From: a virus
Taxonomy: Duplodnaviria; Heunggongvirae; Uroviricota; Caudoviricetes
Strand: one strand, 5' to 3'
DNA length: 36,558 nt
Virus record (IMG/VR): IMGVR_UViG_2778261416_000006
Span: 1-36,558 of that record
Position 1 is the stretch's first letter. Every line of letters begins with the position of its first letter. The notes under the pieces were generated by a model, which worked only from the letters and a program-made list of their open reading frames with translations, was not told the DNA's origin and made no database searches. Both the position numbers and the translations under genes were made by a program. Below, piece by piece: positions 274 to 27,053 of this stretch.

Positions 274-1112
274 CTGAAAGGCCCCTTCACGGTCAATGTG
301 TGGATCATTAGCATTGGCCCTGCGACTACTGATTTTAACATCTAGGGAAACGTAGCTGATGTTTGGCTTCGATAAGATTCTGTAGCACCGCCTCAGTGGG
401 GTTGTCAGAACATTCCGCTGCCGCCTTAAGAATATCGCTTACTAGAGATGAAACTGGTTGATTGTAATCCCGGTCGACCGTTACTCTATGTTTATCCGGA
501 TAATTTTGGCGTACACATTAAGTGAAGAAAACTTCAAAGTGATTTGAAACAGATGTTGTATTCACTGGCTCATTTACATTAACTTGAGTGTTGTTCAGCA
601 CATGTTGAAACGCAGCTGTAAGGAAGATGATACAGCCAAGATGTATCCTTCATTATGGGGATTGGCGCGATGACCACCACGGCTTAGCCCGATTGATTAT
701 TTGGAAATTGATTAGAATGCATAATCTGGGCTGAGCTCACTTAAAGTCTCTAATGTTTGACTTGGAGATTTGGGGGGCAGTGGCTTTCAGTTTTGTTAAC
801 TCTAACATCTGGTTTACGTTCCTTTTGGAACAAGAAGCAGAGGTCTGCTAAGTAATGGTTGTACTGCTTGTGATAGGTATGACTGCATGTTCAGCGAGCA
901 AGAATGGCTTAAAAGTTCTGTTACTGAGCACCCCATGAAGTTAGAACGATGTCATAACGTGCACGTAACCGTTGAACTGTTCTCTTACAGATAATCTCTA
1001 CATAGCTATTATTGCTTAGGCGGTAGCTATGTAGATGGTTTTTGTAATATTATATTAAAAGTTCATACAGCGACTATAGCATCATTGCGAAAAATATCAG
1101 GAGGTGAGTTTA

Positions 1113-2567
1113 ATGTTACGAAAAAGCAAACTTACAGAGATATATAAAAGGTTTGGTTTTACTGAAGAAAATACAGGTAACGAAAGTATTGCTGTATATT
1201 CTATTAAAACAGGGCACTACCATAACGCGGACATACTTCCACTAAATAATGAGGTTAATGTAAATCAAACCTTTGAAGAATATAGGCAGTTAGGTTATGC
1301 ATGTCAAATTAAAAAATATCAGTCTTATGAAGAAGCACATAAGGAATTATTTAATGGCTTCTTTAGCGTCGATTCAACTAAAGAAAGGTTGATTAAAGAT
1401 TATAATACTTTCACAGATTCAATTGTAAAAATTCACTCACCTACTGCAACTTATTCCTACATAAATTCAAAATATTACTTAAATGGTGTTATTGGCGAAG
1501 CTAATGTTGTTACGGAAATATTAGAGAGAATACAACATAGGCGTCCAATTCTGTTTTTGATTGAGGCTGCAGCCGGTTTTGGAAAGACTTGCACGGCGTA
1601 TGAATTATTGAGGGAGATTATAGTTAACAATATAGGGAAAATACCATTATTTTCAGAACTATCAAGGAATAGGCAAGCAAAAATATTCAGGTATGTACTA
1701 TTAGATGAAATTGATAGAAGTTTTCCTTTGTTAAGCTCAGCCTTAGTAAGGAATGAAATAAGAGCAGGAAATGTACCAGTTATACTTGACGGGTTTGATG
1801 AACTATTGCATGAAAGTACAAACGGAATTGAAAATAATTATGAAAAAACAGAGCCAATGCTGGAAATAATAAGTGAGCTTCTAACTGATAGTGCAAAAGT
1901 GGTTTTGACAACTCGAAGAACAGCTATATTTGACGGAGATGAATTCCATCAGTGGATAGCATCACATCAAGAAGATTTTGATGTGATAAGAATAAGAATT
2001 CATGAACCACAAATTGAAGACTGGCTTCCAGGTCAACGTTTAGATGAAATTTCATCGACAGGATTTCCTCTTAACAAATTATCAAACCCTGTACTGCTAT
2101 CATTTCTAAGATGCATCGACGACACCGACTTTAATAAAGTTATAAGCGACCCAACAACTATAGTGAGGAAGTATTTTGATTCAATGCTTGAGCGAGAAAG
2201 AAAAAGACAAGATTTATTAATGTCTATTGAAGATCAATATACTATACTAAAAATAATAGCTGACGACATGGTCGAGGGTAACTACACATCTGAGTCTAGA
2301 GAGTATATATCGTTAGTCATAACTGAAAAGAATCAACAACTCTTGGAGGCTACAAGAAAGCTTTATACTGTAGATGAAAGACCAACTACTGACGAATTAG
2401 TTAATAAATTAGCATCGCATGCTCTATTAGATCGGTCAGGCTCAGAAAACCAAGGTATTGGATTTGTTAATGAATTTGTTCTTGGTAATTTTGTTTCTGA
2501 AAATATTATTAATGATAAGTCAAATGAATGGATTGGTGATAAACGTTTTATAGAACCAGCAGTGTAA
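1113..2567 (+). CDS. NACHT-type STAND P-loop NTPase
   Basis: Walker A-like AAAGFGKT, Walker B VPVILDGFDELL (hhhhDGxDE) about 70 aa later, then VVLTTRR matching the NACHT hhhT[ST]R motif. AGGAGG at 1098-1103 precedes ATG 1113; track start 1104 is a GTG. AT-rich codon usage. Confidence 0.65.
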   Translation: MLRKSKLTEIYKRFGFTEENTGNESIAVYSIKTGHYHNADILPLNNEVNVNQTFEEYRQLGYACQIKKYQSYEEAHKELFNGFFSVDSTKERLIKDYNTFTDSIVKIHSPTATYSYINSKYYLNGVIGEANVVTEILERIQHRRPILFLIEAAAGFGKTCTAYELLREIIVNNIGKIPLFSELSRNRQAKIFRYVLLDEIDRSFPLLSSALVRNEIRAGNVPVILDGFDELLHESTNGIENNYEKTEPMLEIISELLTDSAKVVLTTRRTAIFDGDEFHQWIASHQEDFDVIRIRIHEPQIEDWLPGQRLDEISSTGFPLNKLSNPVLLSFLRCIDDTDFNKVISDPTTIVRKYFDSMLERERKRQDLLMSIEDQYTILKIIADDMVEGNYTSESREYISLVITEKNQQLLEATRKLYTVDERPTTDELVNKLASHALLDRSGSENQGIGFVNEFVLGNFVSENIINDKSNEWIGDKRFIEPAV

Positions 2568-2573
2568 TCTTAT

Positions 2574-3218
2574 ATGCCGAGGATCGATGATGAAAAAGAA
2601 TTACTTTGGCATAGCTTAGAGTTTGCTTTATATTTTATGTCAGGTAATGATAAAATCCTTTATAGTCATTTGCTTATAGGAAAAGTTCCATTAGATTTAA
2701 AAAATGATAGTGTTGAGCAATTGTCTATATCAAAACTTTCTTTAGGCGATATAAATATAATACATGATACTATCTTTGTTGATTGTTCGTTTTTTAGCAG
2801 CATATTTACCTGTGGTAATTATAAAAACGTTACATTCGTGAACTGTTCTTTTATAGATTGTAGTTTTAACGAATTAAGTGGTAGGGAAGATATTTATTTT
2901 TTGGGATGTGAATGTGACAATGATGCTATTAATAAAAAATCTGTCGAGATAAACAGTGAAAATGATCACGATATTACAGATTGTGATATTTACATCTTAG
3001 AGAAGTTCTGTCCCAGAGGGAGTGTTAGCTATCATAAGCATCGGCCTATAAAAGGCTTATGTTCTAACAACAATCAATTTCAGTTAAGTGAAATACTCCA
3101 TTCTTTAGATAAATTGAGGAAAGACGGTCTTTTACTTACGCCAGACAAGCGTTCGTTCCTTGAACTTAACATGGCAAGAATATCAGAGATTAAAGCAATT
3201 CTTGGGAGGAATTTCTGA
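2574..3218 (+). CDS. pentapeptide-repeat-like protein
   Basis: Seven consecutive 5-residue units with an aromatic at the same position (FVDCS FFSSI FTCGN YKNVT FVNCS FIDCS FNELS). Starts 7 nt after upstream stop; its stop overlaps the next start (TGATG at 3216-3220). Confidence 0.55.
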   Translation: MPRIDDEKELLWHSLEFALYFMSGNDKILYSHLLIGKVPLDLKNDSVEQLSISKLSLGDINIIHDTIFVDCSFFSSIFTCGNYKNVTFVNCSFIDCSFNELSGREDIYFLGCECDNDAINKKSVEINSENDHDITDCDIYILEKFCPRGSVSYHKHRPIKGLCSNNNQFQLSEILHSLDKLRKDGLLLTPDKRSFLELNMARISEIKAILGRNF

Positions 3219-4123
3219 TGTATAACGGGAATGAATTGCGAATTATTCAAAGTTTGCAAAAAGATATAGAAGATGAACTTAATCGTATTGGATTACTTTA
3301 TCGTTTTTTTTCGAGGACAAAATCAGAAAGCTCAATAATTAAGAAATATGAAAAAGAGCCTAATAAATACTCAGAGGATGGTAAAAAAATTCAAGACTTA
3401 TTTGGGGTTAGGATAATATTATATTTTCCTGATGATTTATTTATTGCTCAAAAAACACTGGAGAAATTATTCGAAATTGAATCTAAAACCGTAGACGAAA
3501 CCACGGCTAATCTCTTTGCGGCAACTCGATGCAATTACGTCTTTAAGTTACCAGAAGTATTATCAAATGATAGTGTCTTATTAAAGAAATATTCTTATAT
3601 TGATACTACTTTTGAAGTCCAATTTAGAACTATTTTATCTGAAGGATGGCATGAAGTTGAGCATGATCTACGCTATAAGTGCAAAGAGGATTGGGTTGAG
3701 CATAATGACCTTAGTCGCGCGCTGAATGGAATTTACGCCTCTTTGGAAACATCTGATTGGGGAATAATGAAGTTATTTGAGGATTTAGCATATAGAAATT
3801 ATAAGTCAAGCGCATGGTCCGCTATGCTAAGAAATAAATTAAGATTGAGAATGGACGATAAGCTTGATGAAAAGATAATTTCAATAATTAATGAGAAAGA
3901 GCTTGGTAAAAAGTTTTATAGAATTGACAGAGATCGTTTGTTATCGTTAATGTTAGATTATAATATTGATATACCAATTAATCTTAATAATATAATTTAC
4001 CTTTGTAATTATTTTTTCATAAAATCTACGGAGCTTCAGGATATAGCCCCTGCTTTAATAATGAAAAAGCTTACAGATGCTGATGAAAAATTCAATAAAA
4101 ATACTATTTTAGCATCTAAATAA
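3218..4123 (+). CDS. RelA/SpoT-like nucleotidyltransferase (synthetase fold), possible toxSAS-type effector
   Basis: N-terminal motifs typical of RelA/SpoT synthetase domain: SRTKSESSIIKKYEK (RxKxxxSxxxK), DLFGVRIILYFPDD (DxxGxRii), EVQFRTILSEGWHEVEHDLRYK (ExQxRT...W...H...YK). C-terminal 130 aa unassigned. Translationally coupled to upstream gene. Confidence 0.65.
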   Translation: MYNGNELRIIQSLQKDIEDELNRIGLLYRFFSRTKSESSIIKKYEKEPNKYSEDGKKIQDLFGVRIILYFPDDLFIAQKTLEKLFEIESKTVDETTANLFAATRCNYVFKLPEVLSNDSVLLKKYSYIDTTFEVQFRTILSEGWHEVEHDLRYKCKEDWVEHNDLSRALNGIYASLETSDWGIMKLFEDLAYRNYKSSAWSAMLRNKLRLRMDDKLDEKIISIINEKELGKKFYRIDRDRLLSLMLDYNIDIPINLNNIIYLCNYFFIKSTELQDIAPALIMKKLTDADEKFNKNTILASK

Positions 4124-5175: not shown

Positions 5176-6072
5176 CTATGACTGGCTGTTTTCAGTAAGA
5201 GTCTTATCATCCAAAGAATTTATTCTAGAAATTCTTTTTAACTCATTAAGATAATCAACCTCGTTTTCTAAGAACCAATGAAGAACTTTAGAGTTGCCAA
5301 GTAATTTATTAATATATGACTGGATTATAACGAATTTCAACATATCTGAACCATACTCGGTTTGAAGTTTTTTCGTTTCTTCCGAAGTTGTTGCCATTTC
5401 TTGTTCCAGACGAAGTATGGTTTTTTTTATGTCCTTTTTATAGGGAGTGTTTTTCCCTTTATTTACTATCATCGATGACGGTGTTGCATCCAAGATGCTC
5501 ATTGCAAATTTTTTACTATAATTATCAAAATTAATCATTGTACCGACTGCTTCAATTTGACGAATTGGCTTCATTTTCCTCAAAACGTCAAATGTAGCCT
5601 TAGGTATAGGTTTATCAGAAAGTTTCGCAATTACACTTGGATCTATGCCGTTCATCACATTAGCTTTATCTTTTATGGCATCAACAGATATGCCCAAAGC
5701 AGCACTAAGTTTTTCAATTGATACTTTTGCCAGAGACTTAATTATCATTCTATGTTCTTCAACTACATTTATATGATTCACTTGTTTGTTAGGAGTGAAA
5801 GCATCATCTATGCTCGAAAGTATACATGGAGCTTTTTCTATATCTAAGTCTTTTAAAGCCTCAACCCTTAAATGGCCATCAAGTATCTTAGTGACATCTT
5901 TATCTTTGTCATAGAATACTATTATTGGTTCAATAATACCCAAGCTTTCGATAGAGGTAACTATTTGATGATATTTATGGCTTCGCTTTACGTTTTCTAA
6001 TAATTCCTTAGATGGAATTAACTTATTAGTTTCCAGGTAAATAAAATTTTTGCCAAAACGTATCTGAATCAT
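5176..6072 (-). CDS. ParB/sulfiredoxin-fold protein
   Basis: N-terminal ParB-like region with ILDGHLRVEAL (GxxRxxA-type box). ATG at 6072-6070; 4-nt overlap with upstream gene. AT-rich. Confidence 0.55.
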   Translation of the reverse strand: MIQIRFGKNFIYLETNKLIPSKELLENVKRSHKYHQIVTSIESLGIIEPIIVFYDKDKDVTKILDGHLRVEALKDLDIEKAPCILSSIDDAFTPNKQVNHINVVEEHRMIIKSLAKVSIEKLSAALGISVDAIKDKANVMNGIDPSVIAKLSDKPIPKATFDVLRKMKPIRQIEAVGTMINFDNYSKKFAMSILDATPSSMIVNKGKNTPYKKDIKKTILRLEQEMATTSEETKKLQTEYGSDMLKFVIIQSYINKLLGNSKVLHWFLENEVDYLNELKRISRINSLDDKTLTENSQS

Positions 6073-6965
6073 TTTGATACCTCTTTGTTTACTGGGTTTA
6101 ATATCTGAGATGGTAGTTCTGAAAGATTCTCTTGTTCAAGTATATTTTGAAAGCTTTTATTCATCATTATGATGTTAAAAATCTCATTTATTATTAGTAG
6201 ATTGGTTTTTATAAATTTCGAGTTGTTATAAACAGATTTATGTTCAGCGATACTATTTTCATAAAGCTCAATCAACTCCTCTGCAGTCATCCTTTTTGAT
6301 GGTTTGTGATAATAAAATCCGGCTGCTTTTGCACCTTTATTCCCAACTGTTCTTTGATTTAGAATGTATTTTATCTTTATAATGTCCCGACTTTTTATTA
6401 ATTTTTTATCATATGCTTCGGTAAGAATATCTTGTGCTTCCTCAGTTTCACATCTTGCAAATTGCACTGCGAGATACAGAGGCAAATTACCCCGTTCGAC
6501 TGCTGAGAGAAGTTTATGCTCTCCCTTATCAAGAAGCATATTAATACTGCTCACCCAGTTCGATGAATATCCAGTAATCTCACTTATTTCGGAGTCTGAA
6601 AGTCCTCTGATTTTCATGTCTTTAATCACCTGTAATAACTCATTAGAACGTGGTCTTCTCCTTGCAATGTTTTCAACTAAACTCATAACGTAAGCATCTT
6701 CTTCTGATACATCTCTTATAATTGCTGGAATAATAGTTTCACCTAATGCAACAAGAGCCTCTATTCTCCCTTGACCACAAATTAAAGCATATTTGAAATC
6801 GTCTTCATCAATAGCTCTTACGCTTATAGGCTTGCTTAATCCTCTTTTTTTTATGCTTTCCTTTATTTCTTCATGCACTACCTTATTTCTTGTTCGTGGG
6901 TTAAGAAATTTTATTTTTGCAATCTCAATTTGAATTATTGGGAATTCATTTTTTTCAGGCAGCAT
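6069..6965 (-). CDS. ParB-like protein with HTH
   Basis: ParB box-like CGQGRIEAL and LVENIARRRPR, followed by helix-turn-helix-like GLSDSEISEITGYSSNWVSSI. ATG at 6965-6963; overlaps recombinase gene end. Confidence 0.6.
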   Translation of the reverse strand: MLPEKNEFPIIQIEIAKIKFLNPRTRNKVVHEEIKESIKKRGLSKPISVRAIDEDDFKYALICGQGRIEALVALGETIIPAIIRDVSEEDAYVMSLVENIARRRPRSNELLQVIKDMKIRGLSDSEISEITGYSSNWVSSINMLLDKGEHKLLSAVERGNLPLYLAVQFARCETEEAQDILTEAYDKKLIKSRDIIKIKYILNQRTVGNKGAKAAGFYYHKPSKRMTAEELIELYENSIAEHKSVYNNSKFIKTNLLIINEIFNIIMMNKSFQNILEQENLSELPSQILNPVNKEVSK

Positions 6966-8511
6966 ATAGTTCCCTCACTTTCATGCGAGTAATAATTTGT
7001 AGAAATTTATCAAGATTATCAAATCTATAGAGATCTAACCGAATGTTGTTTGTTTCCATCATACACATTTTACTATATTCGTTTTCAATCTTTGGTATGA
7101 TATAAAAATCAAGAGGTGAAATATTTTGTGAATTCATTCGTATAACAATTGTTATGTCTGCTTTCTGTGAGTTATCAAACCGGACTTTCCATCTAAGTTT
7201 ACCTGATTTCATATGTATGCATTTAGTAACAAGGACGGAAATTAAAAACTCATCATTGATGTAAAGCATTGGGTAATATTTATACTCGTCTATATGACAG
7301 TTACTTTTTAATATTTCGCCCTTAAAATCCTCAATTATCTCTGAGTAAAATGATCTTAGTGCTTCATTTATTTGGAGATAGCTGTAATCATGTTCTGGCT
7401 TATAACCAATCAAAGTATATGCTCTTAAAAGACCACCAAATCGGGTTCTATAAACAGAAGATGAAGGGCCTGTATCATCTTCATCAATGATAAAGCCTGA
7501 TAGTTTTCCATTAGATTCTAATTTTTCTTTTAGCTTTTCTAATAGATCTTCATTAGTCAAATGAATGGATCGGAGCTGAATTATTTCTTGAGCTTTATTA
7601 TATTTTTTCTTTGAAATAATTGGTTTATATGCCTTGTCACATCTAATCCATTCATGTTTGGGGTTTTTTACAAGCTTACTTTTTAGTTTAGATGAGGTTT
7701 TGTTATATATGTTGTTTCCAATATATTTTTCATTTGTCAAAATTTGATGTATTTTTGCACGAGTCCATGATGTTCCATTTTCTGCAGGTATGCTCTGTTC
7801 ATTTAATCTCTCAGCAATAATGAATTCTGGGACGTTACTATCTATAAAGAGATCATAGATTCTATTTACAATTTTTATTTCATTTTTTGGTCCCGGAATT
7901 AATATTACCCTATCTGTTTGAATACTCTTTCTTTTGCGGAAATTCAATATTTCTTTAGCTATGCCATTTTCGTCTACTAAAAGACGTCTCAGCCCATAAC
8001 CAGCCATACCGCCTTGATGATAACCAAGCTTTATTAAATTTACTTGCCCTATAAATACCTTTTCAGATAGATTCCTGCTGTGATATGCAGCACTTGATCT
8101 TTTTATATTCAGTATAACAGAGGACTCTAAAGGGAAATCTTTAGTGGGTATAGGTTCGGAACAATATATAAGATCTACACCATTTCTTTCAAATAGAAAG
8201 GAATAATATGCAGCTTCATCACTATTTTGAAAACGACCAAAACGGCTCACATCATAAAATAATACAGCCTGTATATCTATTTTCTTTTGTTCTACATCGC
8301 TAAGTAACTGCTGCAAAGAATGCCTGCCTACGATACTGACTCCGCTCTTACCTGCATCATCGTAGGTATAAGCGATTTCCATATTGTTCTTTTCAGCATA
8401 ATCTTTGATATATTCAGACTGATTATGTAAAGAATATTGCTGATGGTCGGTAGACATCCTCAAGTACTGTGCGACCCTAACTCTATGATTTTTTTCATTT
8501 CCGCTAGCCAT
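6955..8511 (-). CDS. large serine recombinase
   Basis: N-terminal resolvase/invertase catalytic motifs: VAQYLRMSTDHQ (catalytic Ser), YDDAGKSG, LFYDVSRFGR. Length 518 aa fits the large serine recombinase class. Track start 8517 is TTG; ATG at 8511 is preceded by GAGG. Confidence 0.75.
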   Translation of the reverse strand: MASGNEKNHRVRVAQYLRMSTDHQQYSLHNQSEYIKDYAEKNNMEIAYTYDDAGKSGVSIVGRHSLQQLLSDVEQKKIDIQAVLFYDVSRFGRFQNSDEAAYYSFLFERNGVDLIYCSEPIPTKDFPLESSVILNIKRSSAAYHSRNLSEKVFIGQVNLIKLGYHQGGMAGYGLRRLLVDENGIAKEILNFRKRKSIQTDRVILIPGPKNEIKIVNRIYDLFIDSNVPEFIIAERLNEQSIPAENGTSWTRAKIHQILTNEKYIGNNIYNKTSSKLKSKLVKNPKHEWIRCDKAYKPIISKKKYNKAQEIIQLRSIHLTNEDLLEKLKEKLESNGKLSGFIIDEDDTGPSSSVYRTRFGGLLRAYTLIGYKPEHDYSYLQINEALRSFYSEIIEDFKGEILKSNCHIDEYKYYPMLYINDEFLISVLVTKCIHMKSGKLRWKVRFDNSQKADITIVIRMNSQNISPLDFYIIPKIENEYSKMCMMETNNIRLDLYRFDNLDKFLQIITRMKVRELYAA

Positions 8512-8793
8512 GCACAAAACCTCATGGATGATTCAATACAATGTAGAGGATAAAATTGATCAAATTTTAACCGAATTCAACTGTTTTATCATTGATTAGA
8601 GCGAATTTGGTAGTTCTTCGAGGTGTATGATAATCGAGAAGAGATGTGAATTATTTAGCTGATATGACCGACAGCTTTCGTTATGTGGCCTCAAGGTACC
8701 CATTTGTAAATGGCTATGCTTAGTCCACATAGGTTAATGGTGTGATCATTAATTCTTCAAATAAATCAAGATAGTTAACCCATCATGGAAGAG

Positions 8794-10023
8794 TTATGCG
8801 GCAATAACTTTGTATTTTTGAGACGAAACATAGTCACTCCACCATTGCATGAGAACCACACGTTCTGTGAGATACTCTGCACGATTGTAGGCTGCAATTA
8901 TTTCATCTTTTTTCGAGTGGGCAAGGGCGGCTTCTAAGACATCAGTTCTAAACTTGCCACACTCCTCAGCCGCCGTTCTAGCGATTGATCGCATACCATG
9001 AGCTACAAGCTCACCTCCGAAGCCCATACGGATTATAGCCGCATTAGCTGTTTGTTCATGCATGTGATTGAGTGGAGCTTTGATACTGGGAAAAACCCAC
9101 TCTCTATGCCCGCTGATGGCTTTCATTGAATCCAAGACTCGCAAAGATTCTTTGCTCAGTGGAACTTTGTGAGGCTTCTTCATTTTCATAAACTCCGCCG
9201 GGATGTTCCACATGCTGGTTTCTATATCAATATCTGACCATCTTGTGCGAACAGCTTCACCAGGGCGAACCCATGTGAGAAGTTGCCACTCAATCAGTAG
9301 CCTTGTTTCTAAACGGATAGAAGCATTGTTTAGAGCAACCAGGAAGCGGGGGAGTTCGGAAGGGGGTAATGCTGGCATATTCTGTTTTTTTGGCTTGCTG
9401 AACCGTTGCCCCAGGTTGTCAGCCGGATTGAATTCTATGAGTTCTTCTGTTGCTGCATAGCGGAAAATTTCATTCAGGCGGGATATGACGCGGCGAAGTG
9501 TTTCAAGGACACCTCGTTTTTCTATGGGGTCTAAATGCTGTTTAAGCATTTTAGGGCGAATCTCCTTAATGGGGGTATCACCCAACGTTGGAAAGATATT
9601 TCTCTCTAGGCTTCGCCAGATGTCGTTAGCATGATCCTGGGAGATGCCTGACGTTTTGACTTTCTCATCAAGCCACTTCTTGGCTACTGCTTGAAATGTA
9701 TGTTCCGTTGCATCCTTAAGGGCATTGGCTTTGTGGGTGTTATGAACTTGTGGGTCTATACCATTTGCAAGCAACGACAAGTACTCATCACGTAAAGCTC
9801 GTGCCTTCGCAAGTGTAAGGTGAGGATAGGTTCCTAAGCTCACCTTAGTTCGCTTTTTGGTCACAGGCACTGCATATCTGAAATACCAATTTTTCTTTCC
9901 TCCCTTCGCTAAGGGGGCGATTCGCAGGAGCAAACCATCGCCGTCAAAAAGGTTAACCTCTTTCTCGGCAGGTTTGGTGCTTTTGATTTCAGTGTCAGTG
10001 AGCTTCTTAGCGATTTTTGCCAT
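8794..10023 (-). CDS. P4-type tyrosine integrase (IntA/CP4-57-like)
   Basis: N-terminus MAKIAKKLTDTEIK and overall pattern resemble E. coli IntA as I recall it. C-terminal HGMRSIARTAA (HxxR) and AYNRAEYLTERVVLMQWW. Start placed at ATG 10023 rather than track start 10167. Confidence 0.8.
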   Translation of the reverse strand: MAKIAKKLTDTEIKSTKPAEKEVNLFDGDGLLLRIAPLAKGGKKNWYFRYAVPVTKKRTKVSLGTYPHLTLAKARALRDEYLSLLANGIDPQVHNTHKANALKDATEHTFQAVAKKWLDEKVKTSGISQDHANDIWRSLERNIFPTLGDTPIKEIRPKMLKQHLDPIEKRGVLETLRRVISRLNEIFRYAATEELIEFNPADNLGQRFSKPKKQNMPALPPSELPRFLVALNNASIRLETRLLIEWQLLTWVRPGEAVRTRWSDIDIETSMWNIPAEFMKMKKPHKVPLSKESLRVLDSMKAISGHREWVFPSIKAPLNHMHEQTANAAIIRMGFGGELVAHGMRSIARTAAEECGKFRTDVLEAALAHSKKDEIIAAYNRAEYLTERVVLMQWWSDYVSSQKYKVIAA

Positions 10024-10189
10024 GTTTGGGACCCTCATGTTTTGGACCCTTTGTGTTGGGTCCCAAAAAGGGTGCCATAACGAGTAGATTCTAGCAATTC
10101 TCGGTAGACTACTATAGACGTAAAAAAGCCCGCAAGGCTGGTTCCATGCGGGCTTGATAGACTTCACTGAACTTCAATATATCAAAAAT

Positions 10190-10218
10190 TGGTGGAGCTG
10201 GCGGGAGTTGAACCCGCG
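10190..10218 (-). repeat. ssrA: 29-nt copy of the 3' end of the tmRNA gene ssrA (attachment-site core)
   Basis: Minus strand reads CGCGGGTTCAACTCCCGCCAGCTCCACCA, matching the T-arm, 3' acceptor strand and CCA end of E. coli ssrA as recalled. Sequence beyond (10219 onward) is not ssrA. Lies about 165 bp from the integrase start. Confidence 0.7.
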
Positions 10219-10289
10219 TTCTTTTTACTTTATCTTTATGTTTTATAAGAGTTTTACAGGGCGCTGATACGATGCGTAGCTTTAACGGA

Positions 10290-11060
10290 TCTTTATTGCA
10301 GGATATATCCTAAAATGACTAGGCTGTGTCCCTTAATTACGTAACCGTTGATAAAAGAATCGGATGCAGCCAGTTTTAGCATCGCCAGATAATTTCTCGC
10401 CGTTTTGTCGTAACGCATAGCAATGCGGCGGTATTCTTTCAGGCGACCAAAACACCGTTCAACGACGTTGTGATTGCGATACGCATCACGATCAATCCGT
10501 GCACGTCCATCTGATGCCATTTTTTTCATTTGAGTTTCGGGGGATGATTGCCTTTATGCCTTTATTTTTCAGCTCGTTACGCGAACTAGCTTTCATGAGA
10601 CTGCCCGGGGCTTAGTACGATATTTAACGGGAGGCCGCTTCCGTCTGTTGCCAGATGGATTTTGGTGCCCAAACCGCCTCGAGAGCGACCCTGCCCATTA
10701 TCTCCGTCGATATTGGGATGTTTTTTTGAGCCCCGTCGGCGCATTTAAACGCCCGGATATTACTACCATTCAGCGCTGTGGCAGACCAGTCAACAAAGCT
10801 GTTCGCATCAAGTAGTGAAAGCAATCTGTTGAAAATGATGTTAATTACGCCTGACTTTGACCAACTGTTAAAGCGGTTATAAACGGTTTACCATGGCCCA
10901 TATCGTTCGGGTAAATCGCGCCATGGTGTGCCGGAACACAACACCAGAACATGCCATTGATGATTTTACGATGCTCTGCCCATGAGATACCTGCCCGTCG
11001 TGTGACAGGTTCTGGGGCAACAAGGGGGTGATGATGGTCTATACTTCATCGGGGAGGTCG
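10290..11060 (-). mobile_element. degraded IS5-family (IS427-like) transposase remnant
   Basis: Minus-strand translations give GRSRGGLGTKIHLATDGSGLPLNIVLSPGQSHES and DRDAYRNHNVVERCFGRLKEYRRIAMRYDKTARNYLAMLKLAA, typical of IS5-family DDE transposases, but split over several frames with in-frame stops. Boundaries approximate. Confidence 0.6.
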
Positions 11061-11324
11061 TAGCGAGCCATGATTCAATATGTTGTGGAAACAGGCCGTT
11101 ACTATAGATCAAGCTATTACGGGACACAGCCTTAAGTTATTTTATCGATTGACGATATATTTTAAAGAGAATGGTGATTTTATTATCAATAAAAACAATA
11201 AATTAAACGTTACTGCTTTTTTAACGGTTAAGCAACATCTCTTGAAAAATAAGTTTATAGTCATTATTATACGCCAACTTAGCTGGCCCTTGGATGGGTT
11301 ATTCTGCAAAATTAGAAGAATAAG

Positions 11325-11894
11325 ATGAACCAGTGCACACAGTGGTTGGGGTATCATGGCACCAGTGTTTTATGTGCTAATTCAATCATTAATACAAATT
11401 TTAATGTCAGTAGACAAGAAAATGATTGGCTTGGTACCGGAGCCTATTTTTTCATTGAGTCGCCGGGATTGTTGGCCCCAGAAGAAAAAGCGGCTCAATG
11501 GGCTAACATTAGGGCTAGTAATGCGAGACCTAACTATACTAATCTAGCAGTGTTAGAAGCTACCATTGAAGTTGAGCAGTATCTTGACTTAGACAATGAT
11601 GAGCACATAGCCGCTCTCAACAAAGTGAGAGAGGTTTACATGGAAATCATGAAGTCTGAGGGTAAGAAACCAACTGGTAACAGATTGTTTGACAAATGCT
11701 GTTTTTGTAACTATGTAATGCATGAGCATGGTATTGACGCCCTGATACGTAAAGAGTATATCAAAACTACAAGAGAGGAGCTTGATTATGGTTTTGAAGG
11801 GGGAGTTCCTAACTGCAGAGTCTTATGCGTTAAAGACCCTAAAGCGAGTGTTAAGTCCATACGATTCGCGGTCGAGAGAAGGAGAGTACGATGA
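11325..11894 (+). CDS. putative ADP-ribosyltransferase-fold (H-Y-E class, PARP/DarT-like) toxin candidate
   Basis: YHGTSVLCANSIINTNF followed by WLGTGAYFF resembles the HG[ST]...GxGxYF signature of H-Y-E ADP-ribosyltransferases; assignment by eye only. AT-rich; stop overlaps next start (ATGA). Confidence 0.45.
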   Translation: MNQCTQWLGYHGTSVLCANSIINTNFNVSRQENDWLGTGAYFFIESPGLLAPEEKAAQWANIRASNARPNYTNLAVLEATIEVEQYLDLDNDEHIAALNKVREVYMEIMKSEGKKPTGNRLFDKCCFCNYVMHEHGIDALIRKEYIKTTREELDYGFEGGVPNCRVLCVKDPKASVKSIRFAVERRRVR

Positions 11895-12256
11895 ACATCA
11901 ATTTATGGCTCGAAAAGACCTTGGACTCTATAAGGTCAACTGATCCGAAAGCTCTCATGGTGAGGATGGAGCGGTATGGATTGATTGAAGATGATGTTAA
12001 TAAAAATAAGGAAATGTCTCATTCTGGTTATGAATATACAGTTTGTGAGGATCTTCCTAGAGAGGTTCCTTTTGCGTCCTATTTTTTCATTGATAACGCT
12101 TCGTATCATGAAGAATCTATAAATGCTTTATCCGTGCAGTTGACTTTCACAACAGCGCCGCGTGAAGCGGCGTTTTCATTGGCTTCACGTCCAGTGTTTT
12201 ATACATCAGAGATTGCTTGTGGAAATTCTCTGGATCATATTGCCCAGGCTGCTTAA
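11891..12256 (+). CDS. hypothetical protein, candidate antitoxin or adaptor
   Basis: ATG 11891 preceded by AAGGAG; coupled to flanking genes. No motif recognised. Confidence 0.45.
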   Translation: MNINLWLEKTLDSIRSTDPKALMVRMERYGLIEDDVNKNKEMSHSGYEYTVCEDLPREVPFASYFFIDNASYHEESINALSVQLTFTTAPREAAFSLASRPVFYTSEIACGNSLDHIAQAA

Positions 12257-12257
12257 T

Positions 12258-12644
12258 ATGAAATTTCAATTAAATAAGAATCAAATAGAAAAGTTAAGTA
12301 TTGAACATTTTATAAATGAATCATCTATTAAAAACAGTTTTTCATTTTCACATACATGCAAGTATGATGAAGAAAAGAATAATGAGTTTATCATTTCTTT
12401 TAAATTTGAACTTACATCTGACAATGGTTTTAAACTTATTTTTACGCATAATTTCTTTTTTGAATGCGATGAACCAATTACAGAAGAGTTTTTACAGTCA
12501 CATTACACATCAGTGAACGCTCCTGCTATTGCCTATCCTTATGTAAGAGCATTTGTGGCAACATTACTTTTAAACGCAGGCTTAGAGTCTGTTTTATTGC
12601 CTGCTGTTAATTTTGTTGAGCATGCTAAATCGCAAGATAAATGA
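12258..12644 (+). CDS. SecB-like chaperone
   Basis: C-terminal AIAYPYVRAFVATLLLNAGLESVLLPAVNF parallels SecB [30 protein letters not shown]. ATG sits 1 nt after upstream stop; the track ORF 12162-12644 is treated as an N-terminal over-extension. Confidence 0.6.
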   Translation: MKFQLNKNQIEKLSIEHFINESSIKNSFSFSHTCKYDEEKNNEFIISFKFELTSDNGFKLIFTHNFFFECDEPITEEFLQSHYTSVNAPAIAYPYVRAFVATLLLNAGLESVLLPAVNFVEHAKSQDK

Positions 12645-12649
12645 TTAAA

Positions 12650-12674
12650 ATGAGAGCAAATAAATTGCTCTCAT
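12650..12674. terminator. bidirectional hairpin terminator between convergent genes
   Basis: 9-bp stem atgagagca / tgctctcat with 7-nt loop, flanked by A-run upstream and T-rich downstream; overlaps integrase stop codon. Confidence 0.5.
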
Positions 12675-13840
12675 TTATACATGATATCATTTATGGTATT
12701 TTCGTTATCGTACTCTTTTAAATATCTTCCATAATGCCTAAATAGCATTTCTGGTCCTTTATGTCCCATTTGTCCAGCAAGCCAAAATAGGTTCGCCCCT
12801 TGACTGATATGGCGAGTAGCGAATGTGTGTCTCGTTTGATATGGATTACGGTATCTGATTCCTGCTTTTCTCAATATTGGCACCCATGCTTTTTTCCTAA
12901 TTGCATCAGCACTTGCCCAGGGTTTATTGGTCTTTGGATCTTCAAAGACAGTAGCATTCTTTATGAATGTAAATGGCTTCTGGTTTATCAACGCCAACAT
13001 TGCTTCTTCAGTCAGTTCAACTTTACGGGTACCGGCTTTTGTCTTTGTTCCTTTGATAACTCCGACAACACTTGCGCTCTGAACATGGGCTGTTTTTCCA
13101 ACAAAGTCGATATCATGCCATCGTAGGGCACATAATTCAGAACTACGCAGGCCTGTATGTATGGCGAACCGGAACAGATTTTCCCATTGTTTGTTTCCGG
13201 CTGCTGCTAGTAATGCATCAACTTCTGCTGGTGATAGCGGATCAACTAAGTAGCTGCTTTCTGCTTCTGACTTATCACTTTGGTAGCGCGAAGCTGTTAC
13301 TAACGATACGGGGTTAATTTGAAGTACCCCATCGGTCACGGCTTCATCAAGTGCTGACCGCAGGAAAGATAACTGGTTGCGAATGGTTTTTAAGGTCGTT
13401 TTCTGGCTTTGAATCCACGCTTTCAGGGTTGCTGGTGTTAATTCACTTGCAGGGCAAATGTGAAGTGAGGCTAACGCACTACGGCATTTTTTATAACCAC
13501 CGATCGTGGATGGTGAAAGTTTCCTCGTTTCGCAGATTTCAAGATATTCGTCTAGGTACATTTTTACCGTTTTGCCAGCGGCAGCATTACCAAAAATTTT
13601 CAAACGAGCAGAACGGGGAAAATATTCTGCATAAATGAATGTTCCCCTTTCGATCTTATTATGGATTTCGCCGAGTGTACGCTCGGCGTATTTAATGTTC
13701 TTTGGTGTTACTTCCAGATTGGAAAGCGGCTCACGACATCTAACTCCTTTGTAGGTGAAAGTTATATTGATCGTTTCTCCTTGGCGGTGTTTCCTGATTG
13801 TTACGCCGCGCGGTAGTTTGAGCAGTTTTGTCTGGCCCAT
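12671..13840 (-). CDS. lambda-type tyrosine integrase
   Basis: C-terminal catalytic region RHTFATRHISQG (HxxR) and MLFRHYGRYL (Tyr); N-terminal arm-binding-like region. ATG at 13840. Confidence 0.85.
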   Translation of the reverse strand: MGQTKLLKLPRGVTIRKHRQGETINITFTYKGVRCREPLSNLEVTPKNIKYAERTLGEIHNKIERGTFIYAEYFPRSARLKIFGNAAAGKTVKMYLDEYLEICETRKLSPSTIGGYKKCRSALASLHICPASELTPATLKAWIQSQKTTLKTIRNQLSFLRSALDEAVTDGVLQINPVSLVTASRYQSDKSEAESSYLVDPLSPAEVDALLAAAGNKQWENLFRFAIHTGLRSSELCALRWHDIDFVGKTAHVQSASVVGVIKGTKTKAGTRKVELTEEAMLALINQKPFTFIKNATVFEDPKTNKPWASADAIRKKAWVPILRKAGIRYRNPYQTRHTFATRHISQGANLFWLAGQMGHKGPEMLFRHYGRYLKEYDNENTINDIMYK

Positions 13841-14007
13841 TTTGCAACCTCACTAAGATCAATCCACCTCTCCTTAACGCCTTCAACCTTTAAAACCTGA
13901 ACACCTTCACGCCAAACACCGCGCTGTACACGTTTGTTTATTGCTTCAGGAGTTTCGCCAGTTTCTTTGCAATAAGTTGAGATAGGAACACAATCGAGGT
14001 TCAGCAT
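13801..14007 (-). CDS. putative excisionase
   Basis: Small basic protein directly upstream of int, overlapping it by 40 nt. GGAG precedes ATG 14007; track start 14019 is a GTG. Confidence 0.55.
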   Translation of the reverse strand: MLNLDCVPISTYCKETGETPEAINKRVQRGVWREGVQVLKVEGVKERWIDLSEVAKWARQNCSNYRAA

Positions 14008-14066
14008 ATGTTTCTCCACTTAGCCCGCTGCACACGGGCAGTAATATCAAATTTCAGTCCTGATAA

Positions 14067-14282
14067 TTAATTTTGTTCTCTGGTTGCTACCTGTTTAATT
14101 GGCCTGATGCTGTCCAGGAGCAGTCGGCGGCGCGTATTTTCTGCAAAGTGGCGGCGTCCGGTTTCTTTGTGGTAAAACTCGTTTTTTCCGACGACCCACA
14201 TCCGCTTTGTCTGGTGCAGTTTTTTTACCTGCGGACCGTTTCGGGTAATAACAATTCCTGTATGAGTTTTTATCACGCTCAT
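14067..14282 (-). CDS. phage early protein, function unknown
   Basis: ATG-initiated ORF coupled to the upstream gene; position corresponds to yfdT in the CPS-53 yfdP-Q-R-S-T order. Confidence 0.45.
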   Translation of the reverse strand: MSVIKTHTGIVITRNGPQVKKLHQTKRMWVVGKNEFYHKETGRRHFAENTRRRLLLDSIRPIKQVATREQN

Positions 14283-14641
14283 TTCTTATTCTCCGGTGCT
14301 TTCGGCATTACTGCCCAGTGAGTGATATTGACGTTTTCAAGGTCCCCGACCTGAAATGTCCACTGCCATTCTCCGGTTTCTTTTTGTCCCCAGGTGTACC
14401 AGAGAGAACGCCAGCCAATTAGCCAGCCTTCTCCGTTAGCATCAAATAACAGAACACTTTCATTTGCAGGTGGCAGTTCAGCTGACACTGGTATTATTTT
14501 GTTTTCCAGTGCCGCACATTTAGCTTCAAGCGCGTCGAATTTACGTACCAGGTACTCAGCATTTGTTTCGTTCACTTTCAGATCTCGCGGTACACATTTC
14601 CCGCGAAGAAACCCTTCCATTTCGAAAACATTCATGCGCAT
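14279..14641 (-). CDS. phage early protein (YfdS-like), function unknown
   Basis: 120 aa, same size and position as yfdS in CPS-53 as recalled; coupled to flanking genes. Confidence 0.5.
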   Translation of the reverse strand: MRMNVFEMEGFLRGKCVPRDLKVNETNAEYLVRKFDALEAKCAALENKIIPVSAELPPANESVLLFDANGEGWLIGWRSLWYTWGQKETGEWQWTFQVGDLENVNITHWAVMPKAPENKK

Positions 14642-23994: not shown

Positions 23995-24014
23995 AAGAGG
24001 CCTTAGGGCCTCTT
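23995..24014. terminator. hairpin between convergent Q and cargo genes
   Basis: 8-bp stem aagaggcc / ggcctctt with 4-nt loop; no clean T-tract. Confidence 0.4.
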
Positions 24015-24016
24015 TA

Positions 24017-24760
24017 CTAAATTACTTGGATGATGAAAGAAACAATCAATGTTGCTAAACCACCAATAGCAGATACTTTAAATTCCGAACCACGAAATAC
24101 CATCTTCCCATTGACCTTTATATTATTTGCAATGAATGGTGATATTCCAACGGCCGCACTCATGAAATATAAAGAAGAAATCATTTTCTTTTGAAACTCA
24201 TTCAAGTCTGGCATTAACAGTGTAATTGATAAAAAAATACAAAAACTTAAAAATCCAATAATAGCAGTGACAATTAATTTCCAATTCATTGGGGTACCTA
24301 TAGTAAATCCATCGATTGGCAATTTTCGAGACTCAAATTCCGCAATAATAGCGGTGTAAATATCTTTTGATGAGTACTTTTTAATGATTCTTTGGATGTT
24401 TGATAGACCATCTTTGCTATACAATACAATATTGTCTGGATCAATTTTTAGGTGTTTAATGTTTGCCACCATCATGTCGTAGTATTCTAAATAAGTTTCC
24501 AGAACTGCTCGACAGTCTCCAGCTAACGAAATGGCGAATGTCTTATTGTCATCCAGTTTACATAAATCTACTTTTTGAACTAACTTAACAGCGGTATTAA
24601 AATATTTTGAAGCATGCTGCTGAACTTCATGTAGGTCAGCAAGGTTTGATATACCGCCATTACGCACGTATGGCTGAATACCACGTAAAAATCTTTCCTT
24701 TGCAGAAGTCAGCTCCGACGTTACTTCGTCGGGGCTGATCTGAAACACATCATTATTCAT
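24017..24760 (-). CDS. membrane protein with two C-terminal transmembrane segments (cargo gene)
   Basis: Hydrophobic stretches WKLIVTAIIGFLSFCIFLSITLLMP and VSAIGGLATLIVSFIIQVI; AT-rich; opposite strand to phage late genes; start overlaps upstream gene stop. Confidence 0.5.
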   Translation of the reverse strand: MNNDVFQISPDEVTSELTSAKERFLRGIQPYVRNGGISNLADLHEVQQHASKYFNTAVKLVQKVDLCKLDDNKTFAISLAGDCRAVLETYLEYYDMMVANIKHLKIDPDNIVLYSKDGLSNIQRIIKKYSSKDIYTAIIAEFESRKLPIDGFTIGTPMNWKLIVTAIIGFLSFCIFLSITLLMPDLNEFQKKMISSLYFMSAAVGISPFIANNIKVNGKMVFRGSEFKVSAIGGLATLIVSFIIQVI

Positions 24761-25020
24761 TTTTGTTTTGGTGCCAGCATTCTTAATGCAGTGTTAAGAT
24801 CAGAGTTGTCCACACTTTCAGTGATTAAGAATTGGGTATTGGGAACATGACGGCTGATAATGCCTTGGAGCATGCTACGACTTATAACTTTACCACTTTG
24901 AAGCGCGGAGTTAATGTCATTTTGTATCAAAGTGATTTCACGCTCGGTACAGGGGAAACCCCACCGAGTAACATTTGCATATTCACCAATTTTTTTCTTA
25001 AATTCTAGGTAGTTACTCAT
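24757..25020 (-). CDS. small soluble protein (87 aa), first gene of the cargo cassette
   Basis: ATG-initiated, AT-rich, coupled to the membrane-protein gene. Confidence 0.45.
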   Translation of the reverse strand: MSNYLEFKKKIGEYANVTRWGFPCTEREITLIQNDINSALQSGKVISRSMLQGIISRHVPNTQFLITESVDNSDLNTALRMLAPKQK

Positions 25021-25138
25021 TGCAGTTCTCCTTGTTTGTAACCACGTTAATCATATCAAAAAGCAAAATAATAAAAAACTAACGCGTACGCAAAAAGTAT
25101 TGTATCGTGTTAAGAGTGGTTACTTCGCCACGCAGCTT
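25021..25138. promoter_or_regulatory. putative late promoter (pR'-like) region, also the divergent promoter region of the cargo cassette
   Basis: Inference from position between Q and the lysis genes; TTGTAA/TTGTAT -35-like hexamers present but no promoter could be defined precisely. Confidence 0.3.
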
Positions 25139-25162
25139 AAACCCGTCGATGAGCGGGTTTTG
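25139..25162 (+). terminator. tR'-like hairpin terminator
   Basis: aaacccg tcgatgag cgggttt followed by tg and T-rich sequence, upstream of the holin gene. Confidence 0.4.
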
Positions 25163-25311
25163 TCGTCTCTGGCCCGGCTGTTAGTTGGGCTTGGCCTATC
25201 CCGCAGTTATCCATTTGCTCGGCTTCTTTGACGTTTCCGCTTCTGATTTGCGGTTCCTGATATTCCCTCAATTTGCACCTGCTGTATCAGCAAGGTGAGA
25301 GATAACTATAA

Positions 25312-25638: not shown

Positions 25639-25641
25639 TTT

Positions 25642-27008: not shown

Positions 27009-27023
27009 TTTTATTACCTAATA

Positions 27024-27053
27024 AAAAACCGCGTTTACACGCGGTTTTTATTT
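27024..27053 (+). terminator. rho-independent terminator
   Basis: aaaaccgcg tttaca cgcggtttt followed by tatttg. Confidence 0.6.

Follow-up and report, generated by a model that had tools for sequence, protein, structure and literature searches.

A 214-residue pentapeptide-repeat reading frame is the C-terminal part of a NACHT gene interrupted by a nonsense codon

The pentapeptide-repeat ORF at 2574..3218 of the viral record IMGVR_UViG_2778261416_000006 is not an independent gene. Instead, it encodes the C-terminal domain of the neighboring NTPase, freed by a nonsense mutation. (We use "the window" for the whole stretch of DNA that was analyzed, which is 36,558 nucleotides long; all of the features described here are on its + strand.) The best explanation overall, to which we give a probability of about 85%, is that 2574..3218 is codons 488–701, or the 3′ third, of a single NLR-related gene that was split by a C>T change. 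An ATG-started ORF of 214 amino acids is indeed present at exactly the positions given in the preliminary description of this region. The description placed a protein of its own between the genes for an NTPase and an effector. The ORF is indeed flanked by an ORF with NA-iREase2 and NACHT domains and by a RelA/SpoT ORF, but it is in frame with the NACHT ORF and is not a separate gene.

If intact, the NLR-like reading frame (1113..3218) would have 701 codons. In the window it contains one nonsense codon, an ochre stop (TAA) at codon 485 (2565..2567), where the intact allele has CAA (Gln). This stop is the sole separator between the upstream ORF (from 1104 or 1113 to 2567) and the residual ORF at 2574..3218 (residues 488–701 of the NACHT protein); the two share one frame. 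E. coli FDAARGOS_1248 has a 99.9%-identical locus in which codon 485 is CAA and RefSeq annotates a single CDS of 701 amino acids (WP_000944877.1, named NACHT domain-containing protein). Relative to this allele, the E. coli strain of the window has a C>T transition at position 2565. As a result, a gene caller or a reader sees a 484-amino-acid "NTPase," followed by a 214-amino-acid "pentapeptide protein" that begins at the next in-frame ATG.

Only two nucleotides differ between the window and the intact allele across 2.1 kb. The other difference, at window position 1867, is a missense change in codon 252 (1866..1868), which is ATT (Ile) in the window and ACT (Thr) in FDAARGOS_1248. Two homologue alignments, one of 113 and one of 70 sequences, show T252 to be invariant. 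The 214 codons of 2574..3218 have no amino-acid changes at all. Of the 60 complete E. coli genomes that carry the 61-mer around the stop, none is 100% identical to the window there, and all 60 have one annotated CDS across the 2565 site (for 59 of them, the placement of the single mismatch at 2565 was deduced and not read directly).

The ATG at 1113 is preceded by a strong Shine-Dalgarno sequence (AGGAGG), and the RelA/SpoT gene's ATG at 3218 is preceded by GGGAGGA. We looked for a Shine-Dalgarno sequence upstream of the ATG at 2574 and found none. No internal promoter for this ATG was supported either: a scan for promoters and terminators gave only background-level matches to the consensus. 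A separate cistron should have start signals of its own and more than an in-frame stop between it and its neighbor, and ORF 2574..3218 has neither. Because the ATG is only 6 nt downstream of the stop, some termination-reinitiation is possible.

Homologues of the full-length protein are intact across this junction. A search with the 701-amino-acid protein found 1,603 homologues at E ≤ 1e-3. The best 120 of these are almost all of 696–720 amino acids, with 100% coverage that includes the junction. For instance, a homologue from Vibrio (P0001) spans the junction and reads ...EPAIQAYVAR..., and another from V. cholerae (P0049) is 59% identical. We also compared the 214 amino acids alone to 1.84 billion representatives with phmmer, which gave 98 matches, and retrieved 97 of them for length analysis. 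Over half (51/97) have at least 600 amino acids and match through their C-terminal end; the other 46 are shorter. (The phmmer and full-length searches replaced a word-indexed search with the 214 amino acids alone, whose single match was a Vibrio fragment and which overlooked even the identical protein of E. coli.) We checked five of the shorter matches as candidates for a natural split, and all five are remnants or fragments. P0172 is a 5′-deleted remnant whose frame extends upstream of the called ATG; P0175 is a copy that was split by an insertion sequence; P0179 and P0149 are both at contig ends; and P0152 starts with a residue other than Met. We found no genuine split homologue, either in over 1,600 relatives or in the five short matches that were checked.

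This gene has been broken repeatedly in E. coli. Elsewhere among E. coli assemblies, the identical 214-amino-acid ORF remains after at least six further lesions, namely an insertion of IS1, three distinct deletions of a single nucleotide, and two additional nonsense codons. TOE17 has a 5′-deleted NACHT allele, and a 5′ deletion allele is present in about 22 of the 76 complete genomes that have the locus. Many E. coli assemblies have yielded a deposited "hypothetical protein" that is this 214-amino-acid product (one count gave 22 contigs). The ORF is present in 41 blocks of the assembly collection; we read 24 contigs, and each case that we examined was what remained of a disrupted NACHT gene. 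Such repeated inactivation in E. coli, by a 5′ deletion and by several independent point lesions, may point to a fitness cost. The RelA/SpoT gene was full length in all nine of the NACHT-disrupted E. coli alleles that we inspected. An intact RelA/SpoT gene next to a disrupted NACHT gene may merely mean that the lesions are recent (0–1 nt differences).

We considered two other explanations for the broken reading frame. If the strain truly has CAA, then the TAA would be an error in the contig; in favor of this, just one base differs, and no other genome in the comparison shares the change. However, the same allele (a 484-amino-acid product that includes T252I, followed by the 214-amino-acid ORF) is found in GCA_002521955.1 and also in an independent Logan assembly of the read set SRR3971774. 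Furthermore, substitution errors are uncommon in a short-read consensus, and many E. coli assemblies have other lesions in the NACHT gene that look real. A sequencing or assembly artefact is extremely improbable. Alternatively, the split might be functional: translation would reinitiate at the ATG at 2574, and the 214-residue fragment would assemble in trans with the 484-residue NACHT fragment, to give a system of three polypeptides. This would fit with the short distance from the stop to the ATG, with the unchanged 214 codons, with the intact RelA/SpoT gene, and with the recovery of the allele from both the deposited assembly and the independent assembly of reads. But with only two differences in 2.1 kb, no selection can be read from the unchanged codons downstream, and the ATG has no Shine-Dalgarno sequence. 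Codon 485 lies within a predicted helix (residues 477–487 of the full-length AF2 model), so the cut would be inside a helix and not at a domain linker. A functional split also seems inconsistent with the lack of split homologues, with the T252I change at an invariant residue, and with the same ORF having arisen from six or more unrelated lesions, a pattern of decay and not of design. We consider it very unlikely that the two fragments work together.

We return to the explanation that the nonsense mutation broke a single gene. The NACHT allele in the window was most likely inactivated recently, and the β-helix is most likely a sensor domain for defence. Because the sensor is lost and because an invariant residue is changed (T252I), the immune system encoded by the window's allele is most likely non-functional.

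The intact protein has, in order, NA-iREase2, the NACHT NTPase, a helical linker, the pentapeptide β-helix, and a winged helix. NA-iREase2 (NACHT-associated inactive restriction endonuclease 2, PF22723) is at 1128..1481, with a score of 117 bits against a cut-off of 27, and was present in all 70 of the homologues that we scanned with Pfam (70 of the 113 homologues). The NACHT/STAND NTPase module (1491..2522) was identified from its Walker motifs and from the matches of its homologues. Walker A (AAAGFGKT) is at about 1575..1589 and Walker B (LDGFDE) is at about 1785..1802; GFGKT and DGFDE are invariant in the homologue alignments. Pfam's NACHT model gives the window's protein 19.1 bits, under its cut-off of 26.7, and matches 66 of the 70 homologues at E ≤ 0.01 (the best at 7.4e-8). 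The best matches of the full-length AF2 model are to NOD2 and NLRC4, and also to NLRP proteins, with E of about 1e-9. The NACHT module is followed by two α-helices (2586..2678, ORF residues 5–35 in the AF2 model) that extend the helical region. Between the β-helix and the C-terminal domain is a variable acidic linker (2919..2978, ORF residues 116–135), which was modelled with low confidence (pLDDT down to about 53) and has an entropy of 3.0 bits; its net charge is −3 in the ORF, and the family mean is −4.6. The C-terminal domain (2979..3215, ORF residues 136–214) is winged-helix-like and basic (+5.1 ± 1.6 in homologues), with the conserved motif EKFWPxG...KHRPIK...PDKxSFLELN.

The repeat region itself is predicted to form a right-handed quadrilateral β-helix at 2694..2918 (ORF residues 41–115, or residues 528–602 of the protein), with about 15 pentapeptide units in about 3.75 coils. 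Seven consecutive five-residue units with an aromatic residue had been noticed in the sequence, and these proved to be real: HDTIF VDCSF FSSIF TCGNY KNVTF VNCSF IDCSF, at 2763..2867 (ORF residues 64–98), with the DCSF, NCSF, and DCSF motifs as described. Each unit closes with the aromatic residue. When the residues of the ORF were shuffled 200,000 times, a run of seven aromatics with a period of five was reached only once, which puts the run far beyond chance. In the AF2 model of the ORF (pLDDT 89.4), there are short strands every five residues from about 41 to 115, and there are four repeats per coil, as in a quadrilateral β-helix. The fold proposed in the preliminary description is thus the fold that is predicted. 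The β-helix has two irregularities, a bulge of one residue at about position 60 and a loop that spans 99–106.

We used the Pfam models of the pentapeptide superfamily (PF00805, PF13599, and PF13576). The ORF's match to Pentapeptide_4 is below the Pfam gathering threshold (20.7 bits, with E = 4.4e-4, where the cut-off is 38). In the family, 45 of 70 homologues match this model at E ≤ 0.01 (the best at 4.4e-7); for Pentapeptide_3 and Pentapeptide the tallies are 14/70 and 7/70, respectively. The published consensus is (A/C/S/V/T/L/I)(D/N/S/K/E/I/R)(L/F)(S/T/R/E/Q/K/V/D)(G/D/E/N/R/Q/K), and membership in the superfamily is defined by at least eight contiguous repeats (PMC8145042). The ORF has eight in-register units, centred on residues 63–98, with F or Y at position i in seven of them. 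The 15 units fit the consensus at 56 of 75 positions; several units fit at only 2–3 of 5, and the bulge and the loop interrupt the series.

Cysteine makes up 4.2% of the ORF (9 of 214 residues), and the repeats had been described as atypical for this reason. However, the conserved cysteines are at position i−2, where the consensus allows A, C, S, V, T, L, or I (PMC8145042). Four cysteines, all at i−2, are conserved in 88–92% of homologues: C71, C91, and C96, which point inward within the seven units, and C112. The intervals between them are whole coils (71/91/112, and 96 with 76). We set aside the idea that they are metal or redox ligands, given their inward position and their replacement by Ser or Thr in a minority of homologues. 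Judging from the sequences, the conserved cysteines behave as core-packing residues.

Of the folded parts of the protein, the β-helix varies most, with a column entropy of 2.22 bits, versus 1.04 for the NACHT core. Within it, the outward positions (2.55 bits) are more variable than the inward positions (1.55 bits). The β-helix is also acidic, with a net charge (a count from the sequence, not a surface calculation) of −8 over 75 residues in the ORF and −7.2 ± 3.0 in 113 homologues.

This acidity bears on the suggestion that the ORF encodes a mimic of DNA, like Qnr or MfpA. As a domain of the NACHT protein, the acidic β-helix might be bait for a DNA-binding protein of a phage, or might occupy the protein's own winged helix as a pseudo-substrate. 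MfpA, Qnr, and AlbG have the same right-handed quadrilateral fold and are also acidic, with F or L at position i and a small residue at i−2, and here the acidic β-helix is followed by a basic winged helix. However, Qnr, MfpA, and AlbG are stand-alone proteins of about 180–220 amino acids that are nearly all repeats and form dimers, while we found about 15 repeats inside a 701-amino-acid STAND protein. Qnr and MfpA are dimeric rods of 8–10 coils, which is far longer than the roughly 3.75 coils here. The Qnr models of NCBIfam give the ORF about 17 bits (17.2 for QnrVC and 16.8 for QnrS), as compared to cut-offs of 460, and the exhaustive phmmer search of 1.84 billion representatives retrieved no Qnr- or MfpA-type protein. 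The closest structural match to the β-helix is luminal domain 4 of SV2A and SV2C (PDB 4jra, 5jlv, and 8jlg), a surface that binds proteins and does not mimic DNA. (SV2 is a eukaryotic glycoprotein and toxin receptor, with no evolutionary or functional link to this family beyond the repeat fold.) Furthermore, the repeat consensus in general allows acidic side chains at i−1 and i+2 (PMC8145042). The acidic β-helix is the only trait that is shared with a Qnr/MfpA-type mimic, and we consider mimicry of DNA unlikely.

A more elaborate version is that the acidic β-helix sits on the winged helix as a nucleic-acid-like decoy, until a DNA- or RNA-binding protein of a phage pulls it away or a nucleic-acid or oligonucleotide ligand takes its place; the NACHT module would then oligomerize and switch on the RelA/SpoT toxin. 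Displacement of the decoy by a ligand would be similar to the gating of HalA by oligonucleotides (PMC13434031). If true, an NLR would here use molecular mimicry for sensing and would signal via an enzyme that makes alarmones or pyrophosphorylates tRNA; the literature that we searched shows neither step in an NLR-like protein. We view this as very unlikely, and speculative. The ORF is not itself a member of the HalA family, as its score is 21 bits and the cut-off is 250. HalA (PDB 9nyi), which the Hailong anti-phage system uses as its effector, forms a tetrameric transmembrane channel that is gated by oligo-dA (PMC13434031), whereas the NACHT protein has no transmembrane region.

Our preferred explanation, that the repeats are part of a NACHT protein, agrees with previous work. 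In the portions of their study that we consulted, Kibby et al. (bioRxiv 10.1101/2022.07.19.500537; Cell 2023) list "NA-iREase2+NACHT+Pentapeptide" in clade 15, with Vibrio cholerae WP_142737953.1 as the example (NA-iREase2 at 4–125, NACHT at 127–446, and Pentapeptide at 554–585). The order and positions agree with those in our protein (about 6–123, about 127–470, and 528–602). The repeat therefore belongs to a domain architecture that is already catalogued, and is not new. The intact allele and all of the homologues that we examined have the pentapeptide repeats C-terminal to NACHT on one polypeptide. Unlike the clade-15 proteins as listed there, the window's copy is interrupted by a nonsense codon (at 485), and the passages covered do not state the winged helix after the β-helix or the obligatory RelA/SpoT neighbor. 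The same portions of Kibby et al. describe pentapeptide repeats as C-terminal sensors of bacterial NACHT proteins, and alarmone synthetases as their effectors. So the idea in the preliminary description that the repeat protein is a sensor or regulator of the NTPase is plausible, by analogy. In Table S1, no clade-15 member with NA-iREase2 has a bNACHT designation; the designated clade-15 proteins are bNACHT09 (with TIR), bNACHT34, and bNACHT69 (Kibby et al., 10.1101/2022.07.19.500537).

The presumed effector is the RelA/SpoT-like nucleotide pyrophosphokinase of 301 amino acids that is encoded just downstream (3218..4123; PF04607, 56.8 bits against a cut-off of 27). Its start codon overlaps the stop codon of the NACHT gene (ATGA). 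Its relatives in the PDB are the small alarmone synthetases RelP, RelQ, and YjbM (E = 2e-5), and its sequence contains FGVRI, EVQFRT, and HDLRYK, which we take to be the catalytic motifs of the RelA/SpoT family. It also has an uncharacterized extension of about 140 amino acids at its C-terminus. In its synthetase domain, which is above the Pfam threshold, and in its motifs, it resembles the small alarmone synthetases and toxSAS enzymes (RelP/RelQ, FaRel, FaRel2, and CapRel). ToxSAS enzymes are growth-arresting effectors in defence (PMC11245113, PMC9712102), but they are paired with an antitoxin or fused to a sensor, while the window's enzyme is partnered with a NACHT protein. In Morganellaceae, Vibrio, Pseudomonas, and Idiomarina, the NACHT gene is directly followed by a RelA/SpoT gene, and the two-gene cassette is conserved in these four distant lineages with unrelated flanking genes.

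PADLOC gave only a weak match of the RelA/SpoT protein to PDC-S33, and PADLOC-DB 2.0 had no model that matches the NACHT protein and nothing for the 214-amino-acid ORF. Our literature search found no paper with an experimental NACHT + RelA/SpoT system, and no experimental report of phage defence by the NA-iREase2+NACHT+Pentapeptide sub-family. "NA-iREase2" had no match in the main texts that were searched, and the main text of a 2026 survey of STAND proteins (PMC13581612) does not mention pentapeptide repeats.

By analogy with characterized STAND and NLR defence proteins, we propose how the intact system might work. The variable and acidic β-helix, perhaps together with the basic winged helix, would be the C-terminal sensor; this role for the β-helix is suggested by its position, its variability, and the analogy. 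The sensor would keep the NACHT module off until it binds a cue that derives from the phage. NTP-dependent oligomerization would then switch on the co-encoded RelA/SpoT-type pyrophosphokinase, which might make a toxic alarmone or pyrophosphorylate the 3′ ends of tRNAs, and growth would arrest. That the effector by itself seems to be tolerated, as it is intact in nine disrupted alleles, fits with NACHT being its activator and not its antitoxin.

For annotation, this is a clear case of a defence gene with a point mutation being mistaken for an additional small gene. An independent, Cys-rich regulator that mimics DNA, as was first proposed, is not made noteworthy by these results. What is of biological interest is the two-gene cassette, which is widespread in γ-proteobacteria and pairs an NLR-like protein that has a β-helix and a winged helix with a RelA/SpoT-type enzyme. 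Although this cassette was catalogued already, it is a reasonable target for studying how bacterial NLRs couple to effectors in trans.

The preliminary description placed a cysteine-rich pentapeptide-repeat protein between an NTPase gene and an effector gene. The sequence features behind this idea are real. An ATG-started ORF of 214 amino acids lies at 2574..3218 (+), and its residues 64-98 form seven consecutive pentads (HDTIF VDCSF FSSIF TCGNY KNVTF VNCSF IDCSF), each closing on F or Y; the reported cysteine motifs (DCSF, NCSF, DCSF) are all present. A period-5 aromatic run of seven arose in just 1 of 200,000 shuffles of the ORF's own residues, so the repeat is not due to chance. The neighbors are also as described: the ORF on the 5' side has an NA-iREase2 domain (117 bits) and a weak match to NACHT, and the ORF on the 3' side matches RelA_SpoT (56.8 bits).

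Comparison of sequences indicates, though, that 2574..3218 is not a gene of its own: its product is the C-terminal tail of a nonsense-mutated NACHT gene (1113..3218, + strand). Because 1104 and 2574 are both multiples of 3, the NACHT ORF and the 214-aa ORF are in the same frame, and 1104..3218 translates to a continuous protein with a single stop (...RFIEPAV*SYMPRIDD...). The locus matches 76 complete E. coli genomes at 99.9% identity. E. coli FDAARGOS_1248 (RefSeq) encodes a single "NACHT domain-containing protein" of 701 amino acids (WP_000944877.1), with the RelA/SpoT gene directly downstream of it and nothing in between. At the junction, the sole difference is TAA in the window versus CAA in FDAARGOS_1248. 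The first 10.2 kb of the window differ from FDAARGOS_1248 at only six positions, and two of these are inside the NACHT gene: 1867 (T252I) and 2565 (Q485*). The 61-mer centered on the stop was found in 60 complete genomes, none identical to the window (58 have one mismatch and 2 have two), and in all 60 a single CDS is annotated across the junction.

Could the TAA be a sequencing error? This is extremely unlikely: the window allele (484 + 214 + 301 amino acids, with T252I) is also carried by GCA_002521955.1 and by a separate, independent assembly of SRR3971774, which counts against assembly error. We also considered that the window strain might have a split but functional version of the system, which seems very unlikely. 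No Shine-Dalgarno sequence was found 5' of the ATG at 2574 (the upstream sequence is ...CCAGCAGTGTAATCTTAT); AGGAGG precedes the ATG at 1113 and GGGAGGA precedes the ATG at 3218. Codon 485 is within a helix (477-487) in the predicted full-length model of a Citrobacter orthologue. Furthermore, the T252I missense change (codon 1866..1868, + strand, relative to FDAARGOS_1248) affects a threonine that is the same in every sequence of two alignments, with 113 and 70 homologues, so besides the nonsense codon, the allele has a second change that is probably damaging.

Homologues also point to a nonsense-mutated NACHT gene. A search with the read-through protein gave 1,603 homologues. Nearly all of the best 120 have 696-720 amino acids and 100% query coverage; they come from Enterobacterales, Vibrio, Photobacterium, Pseudoalteromonas, Pseudomonas, Cellvibrio, and Idiomarina. 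An exhaustive phmmer search with the 214 residues alone, against 1.84 billion representatives, gave 98 matches. Of the 97 retrieved, 51 have at least 600 amino acids and match the query near their residues 490-705; the other 46 are shorter. We checked five short proteins as candidate stand-alone genes: P0172 is a 5'-deleted remnant whose frame runs on 5' of the called ATG, P0175 is interrupted by an IS, P0179 and P0149 are fragments at contig edges, and P0152 is a fragment with a non-Met start. No bona fide stand-alone version was found among the 1,603 homologues or these five. (With the 214-aa query, a word-indexed protein search gave a single Vibrio fragment and overlooked a 100%-identical E. 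coli cluster that the full-length query recovered; negatives from such searches with short queries should not be trusted.)

Many assemblies have contributed records of the exact 214-aa sequence, named "hypothetical protein [Escherichia coli]", and many independent inactivations of the NACHT gene (the equivalent of 1113..3218) are seen in E. coli. Eight loci with the 214-aa ORF, aligned to the intact CDS, show different lesions upstream of it: an insertion of IS1, the loss of 1 nt at codon 347, 463, or 478, and a premature stop at codon 416 or 447. In strain TOE17, a 5' deletion fused the gene to a relaxase remnant, giving a 483-aa product that is on record for 141 contigs. The CDS under the 61-mer is named "hypothetical protein" in 22 of the 60 genomes, and 22 of the 76 lack contiguous coverage of the locus; deletions of this kind, as checked in TOE17 alone, probably account for both. 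The RelA/SpoT gene (3218..4123, +) is full length in all nine NACHT-disrupted alleles checked.

The expected beta-helix was returned by structure prediction. The AlphaFold2 model of the 214 residues (from a 114-sequence alignment; mean pLDDT 89.4) has two helices at ORF residues 5-35, short strands every five residues from ~41 to ~115, a low-confidence loop, and finally a helix-strand-helix-helix-strand-helix unit. The PDB entries that Foldseek ranked highest were SV2C/SV2A luminal domains, MfpA, EfsQnr, AlbG, QnrB1, and HalA, and the family profile matches AlbG, HalA, MfpA, SV2A, and Qnr sequences over the same segment (E = 1e-4 to 1e-2). The full-length model of the Citrobacter orthologue (89% identical; pLDDT 85.1) best matches NOD2 and NLRC4 (E ~1e-9). 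At the profile level, the window sequence falls below Pfam's threshold for Pentapeptide_4 (20.7 versus 38 bits), but 45 of 70 homologues match it at E<=0.01. The suggested Qnr- or MfpA-like DNA mimicry has no support. By score, the ORF belongs neither to the Qnr families (17 bits versus a cut-off of 460) nor to HalA (21 versus 250).

Nor are the cysteines atypical for the positions they occupy. The hydrophobic center (i) is at ORF positions 42, 47, 52, 57, 63, 68 ... 98; F68 never varies, and conservation of F73, F88, and F93 is 94-99%. C71 (92%), C91 (88%), and C96 (90%) are at i-2, where the consensus quoted from PMC8145042 permits A/C/S/V/T/L/I; the repeat fits that consensus at 56 of 75 positions. 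C112 (92%) comes after a loop. A minority of homologues have Ser or Thr instead. From this register, we infer that the conserved cysteines simply help to fill the solenoid core.

In Morganellaceae, Vibrio campbellii, Pseudomonas phytophila, and Idiomarina, the ~700-aa NACHT gene always has a RelA_SpoT gene of 295-299 amino acids on its 3' side, overlapping it or 2 nt away, and the flanking genes are unrelated. By this gene-order evidence, the two genes travel together as a mobile cassette. Among small alarmone synthetases, RelP, RelQ, and YjbM are similar to the RelA/SpoT protein, which retains the motifs FGVRI, EVQFRT, and HDLRYK. Its residues ~160-301 (3700..4120) form a ~140-aa C-terminal extension without a Pfam match, which may be the domain that docks the NACHT protein; partner length is conserved in other lineages (295-307 amino acids).

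The surrounding island has DUF4928, two ParB-like genes, a serine recombinase, and an integrase (8794..10167). Two adjacent 298-aa ParB/RepB-like genes and the 520-aa recombinase (5176..8517, -) lie between cassette and integrase; other E. coli that have the island keep all three, which may serve island maintenance or form another defense module. Up to 10219, the window runs collinear with the ssrA-adjacent island of FDAARGOS_1248, and from 10220 it diverges; ARAGORN found no tmRNA or tRNA in the window. Around and beyond this point we sampled 10150..14500 and 24000..34000. The stretch after 10220 matches a second integrase/IS5/SecB-like region, and 24-34 kb shares ~97% identity with the genes for tail and baseplate in SfIV-like myoviruses (Mu-type tail), so a prophage adjoins the defense island.

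The architecture is already catalogued: clade 15 entries in Table S1 of Kibby et al. include "NA-iREase2+NACHT+Pentapeptide" proteins from Vibrio cholerae, Paenibacillus, and Ignavibacteriales, and the layout of V. cholerae WP_142737953.1 (domains at 4-125, 127-446, and 554-585) matches our NACHT protein. The clade 15 entries with bNACHT designations (bNACHT09, 34, and 69) have other N-termini. Our literature search turned up no experiments on this sub-family or on any pairing of NACHT with RelA/SpoT.

Across the family, no folded region varies more than the beta-helix (column entropy of 2.22 bits, versus 1.04 for the NACHT core), with 2.55 bits at outward-facing positions and 1.55 at inward ones. 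Over 2694..3215, mean charge across the family is -7.2 +/- 3.0 for the acidic beta-helix, -4.6 for the linker, and +5.1 +/- 1.6 for the basic winged helix. This conserved split suggests either an electrostatic latch within the protein or a module that binds nucleic acids. Kibby et al. count pentapeptide repeats as "antigen-receptor-type" C-terminal sensors of bacterial NACHTs, and alarmone synthetases as effectors of these proteins. From the variability, the charge, the cassette, and these roles, we infer the usual STAND logic: the beta-helix and winged helix would sense a phage cue, the NACHT module would oligomerize on NTP, and the RelA/SpoT enzyme would then be switched on, causing growth arrest. 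The intact RelA/SpoT gene in nine disrupted alleles would fit an activator role, not an antitoxin role, for the NACHT protein, but this is weak evidence because the lesions are recent. What is left of the finding is a caveat for annotation, and a pointer to an experimentally unexplored cassette of an NLR plus RelA/SpoT.
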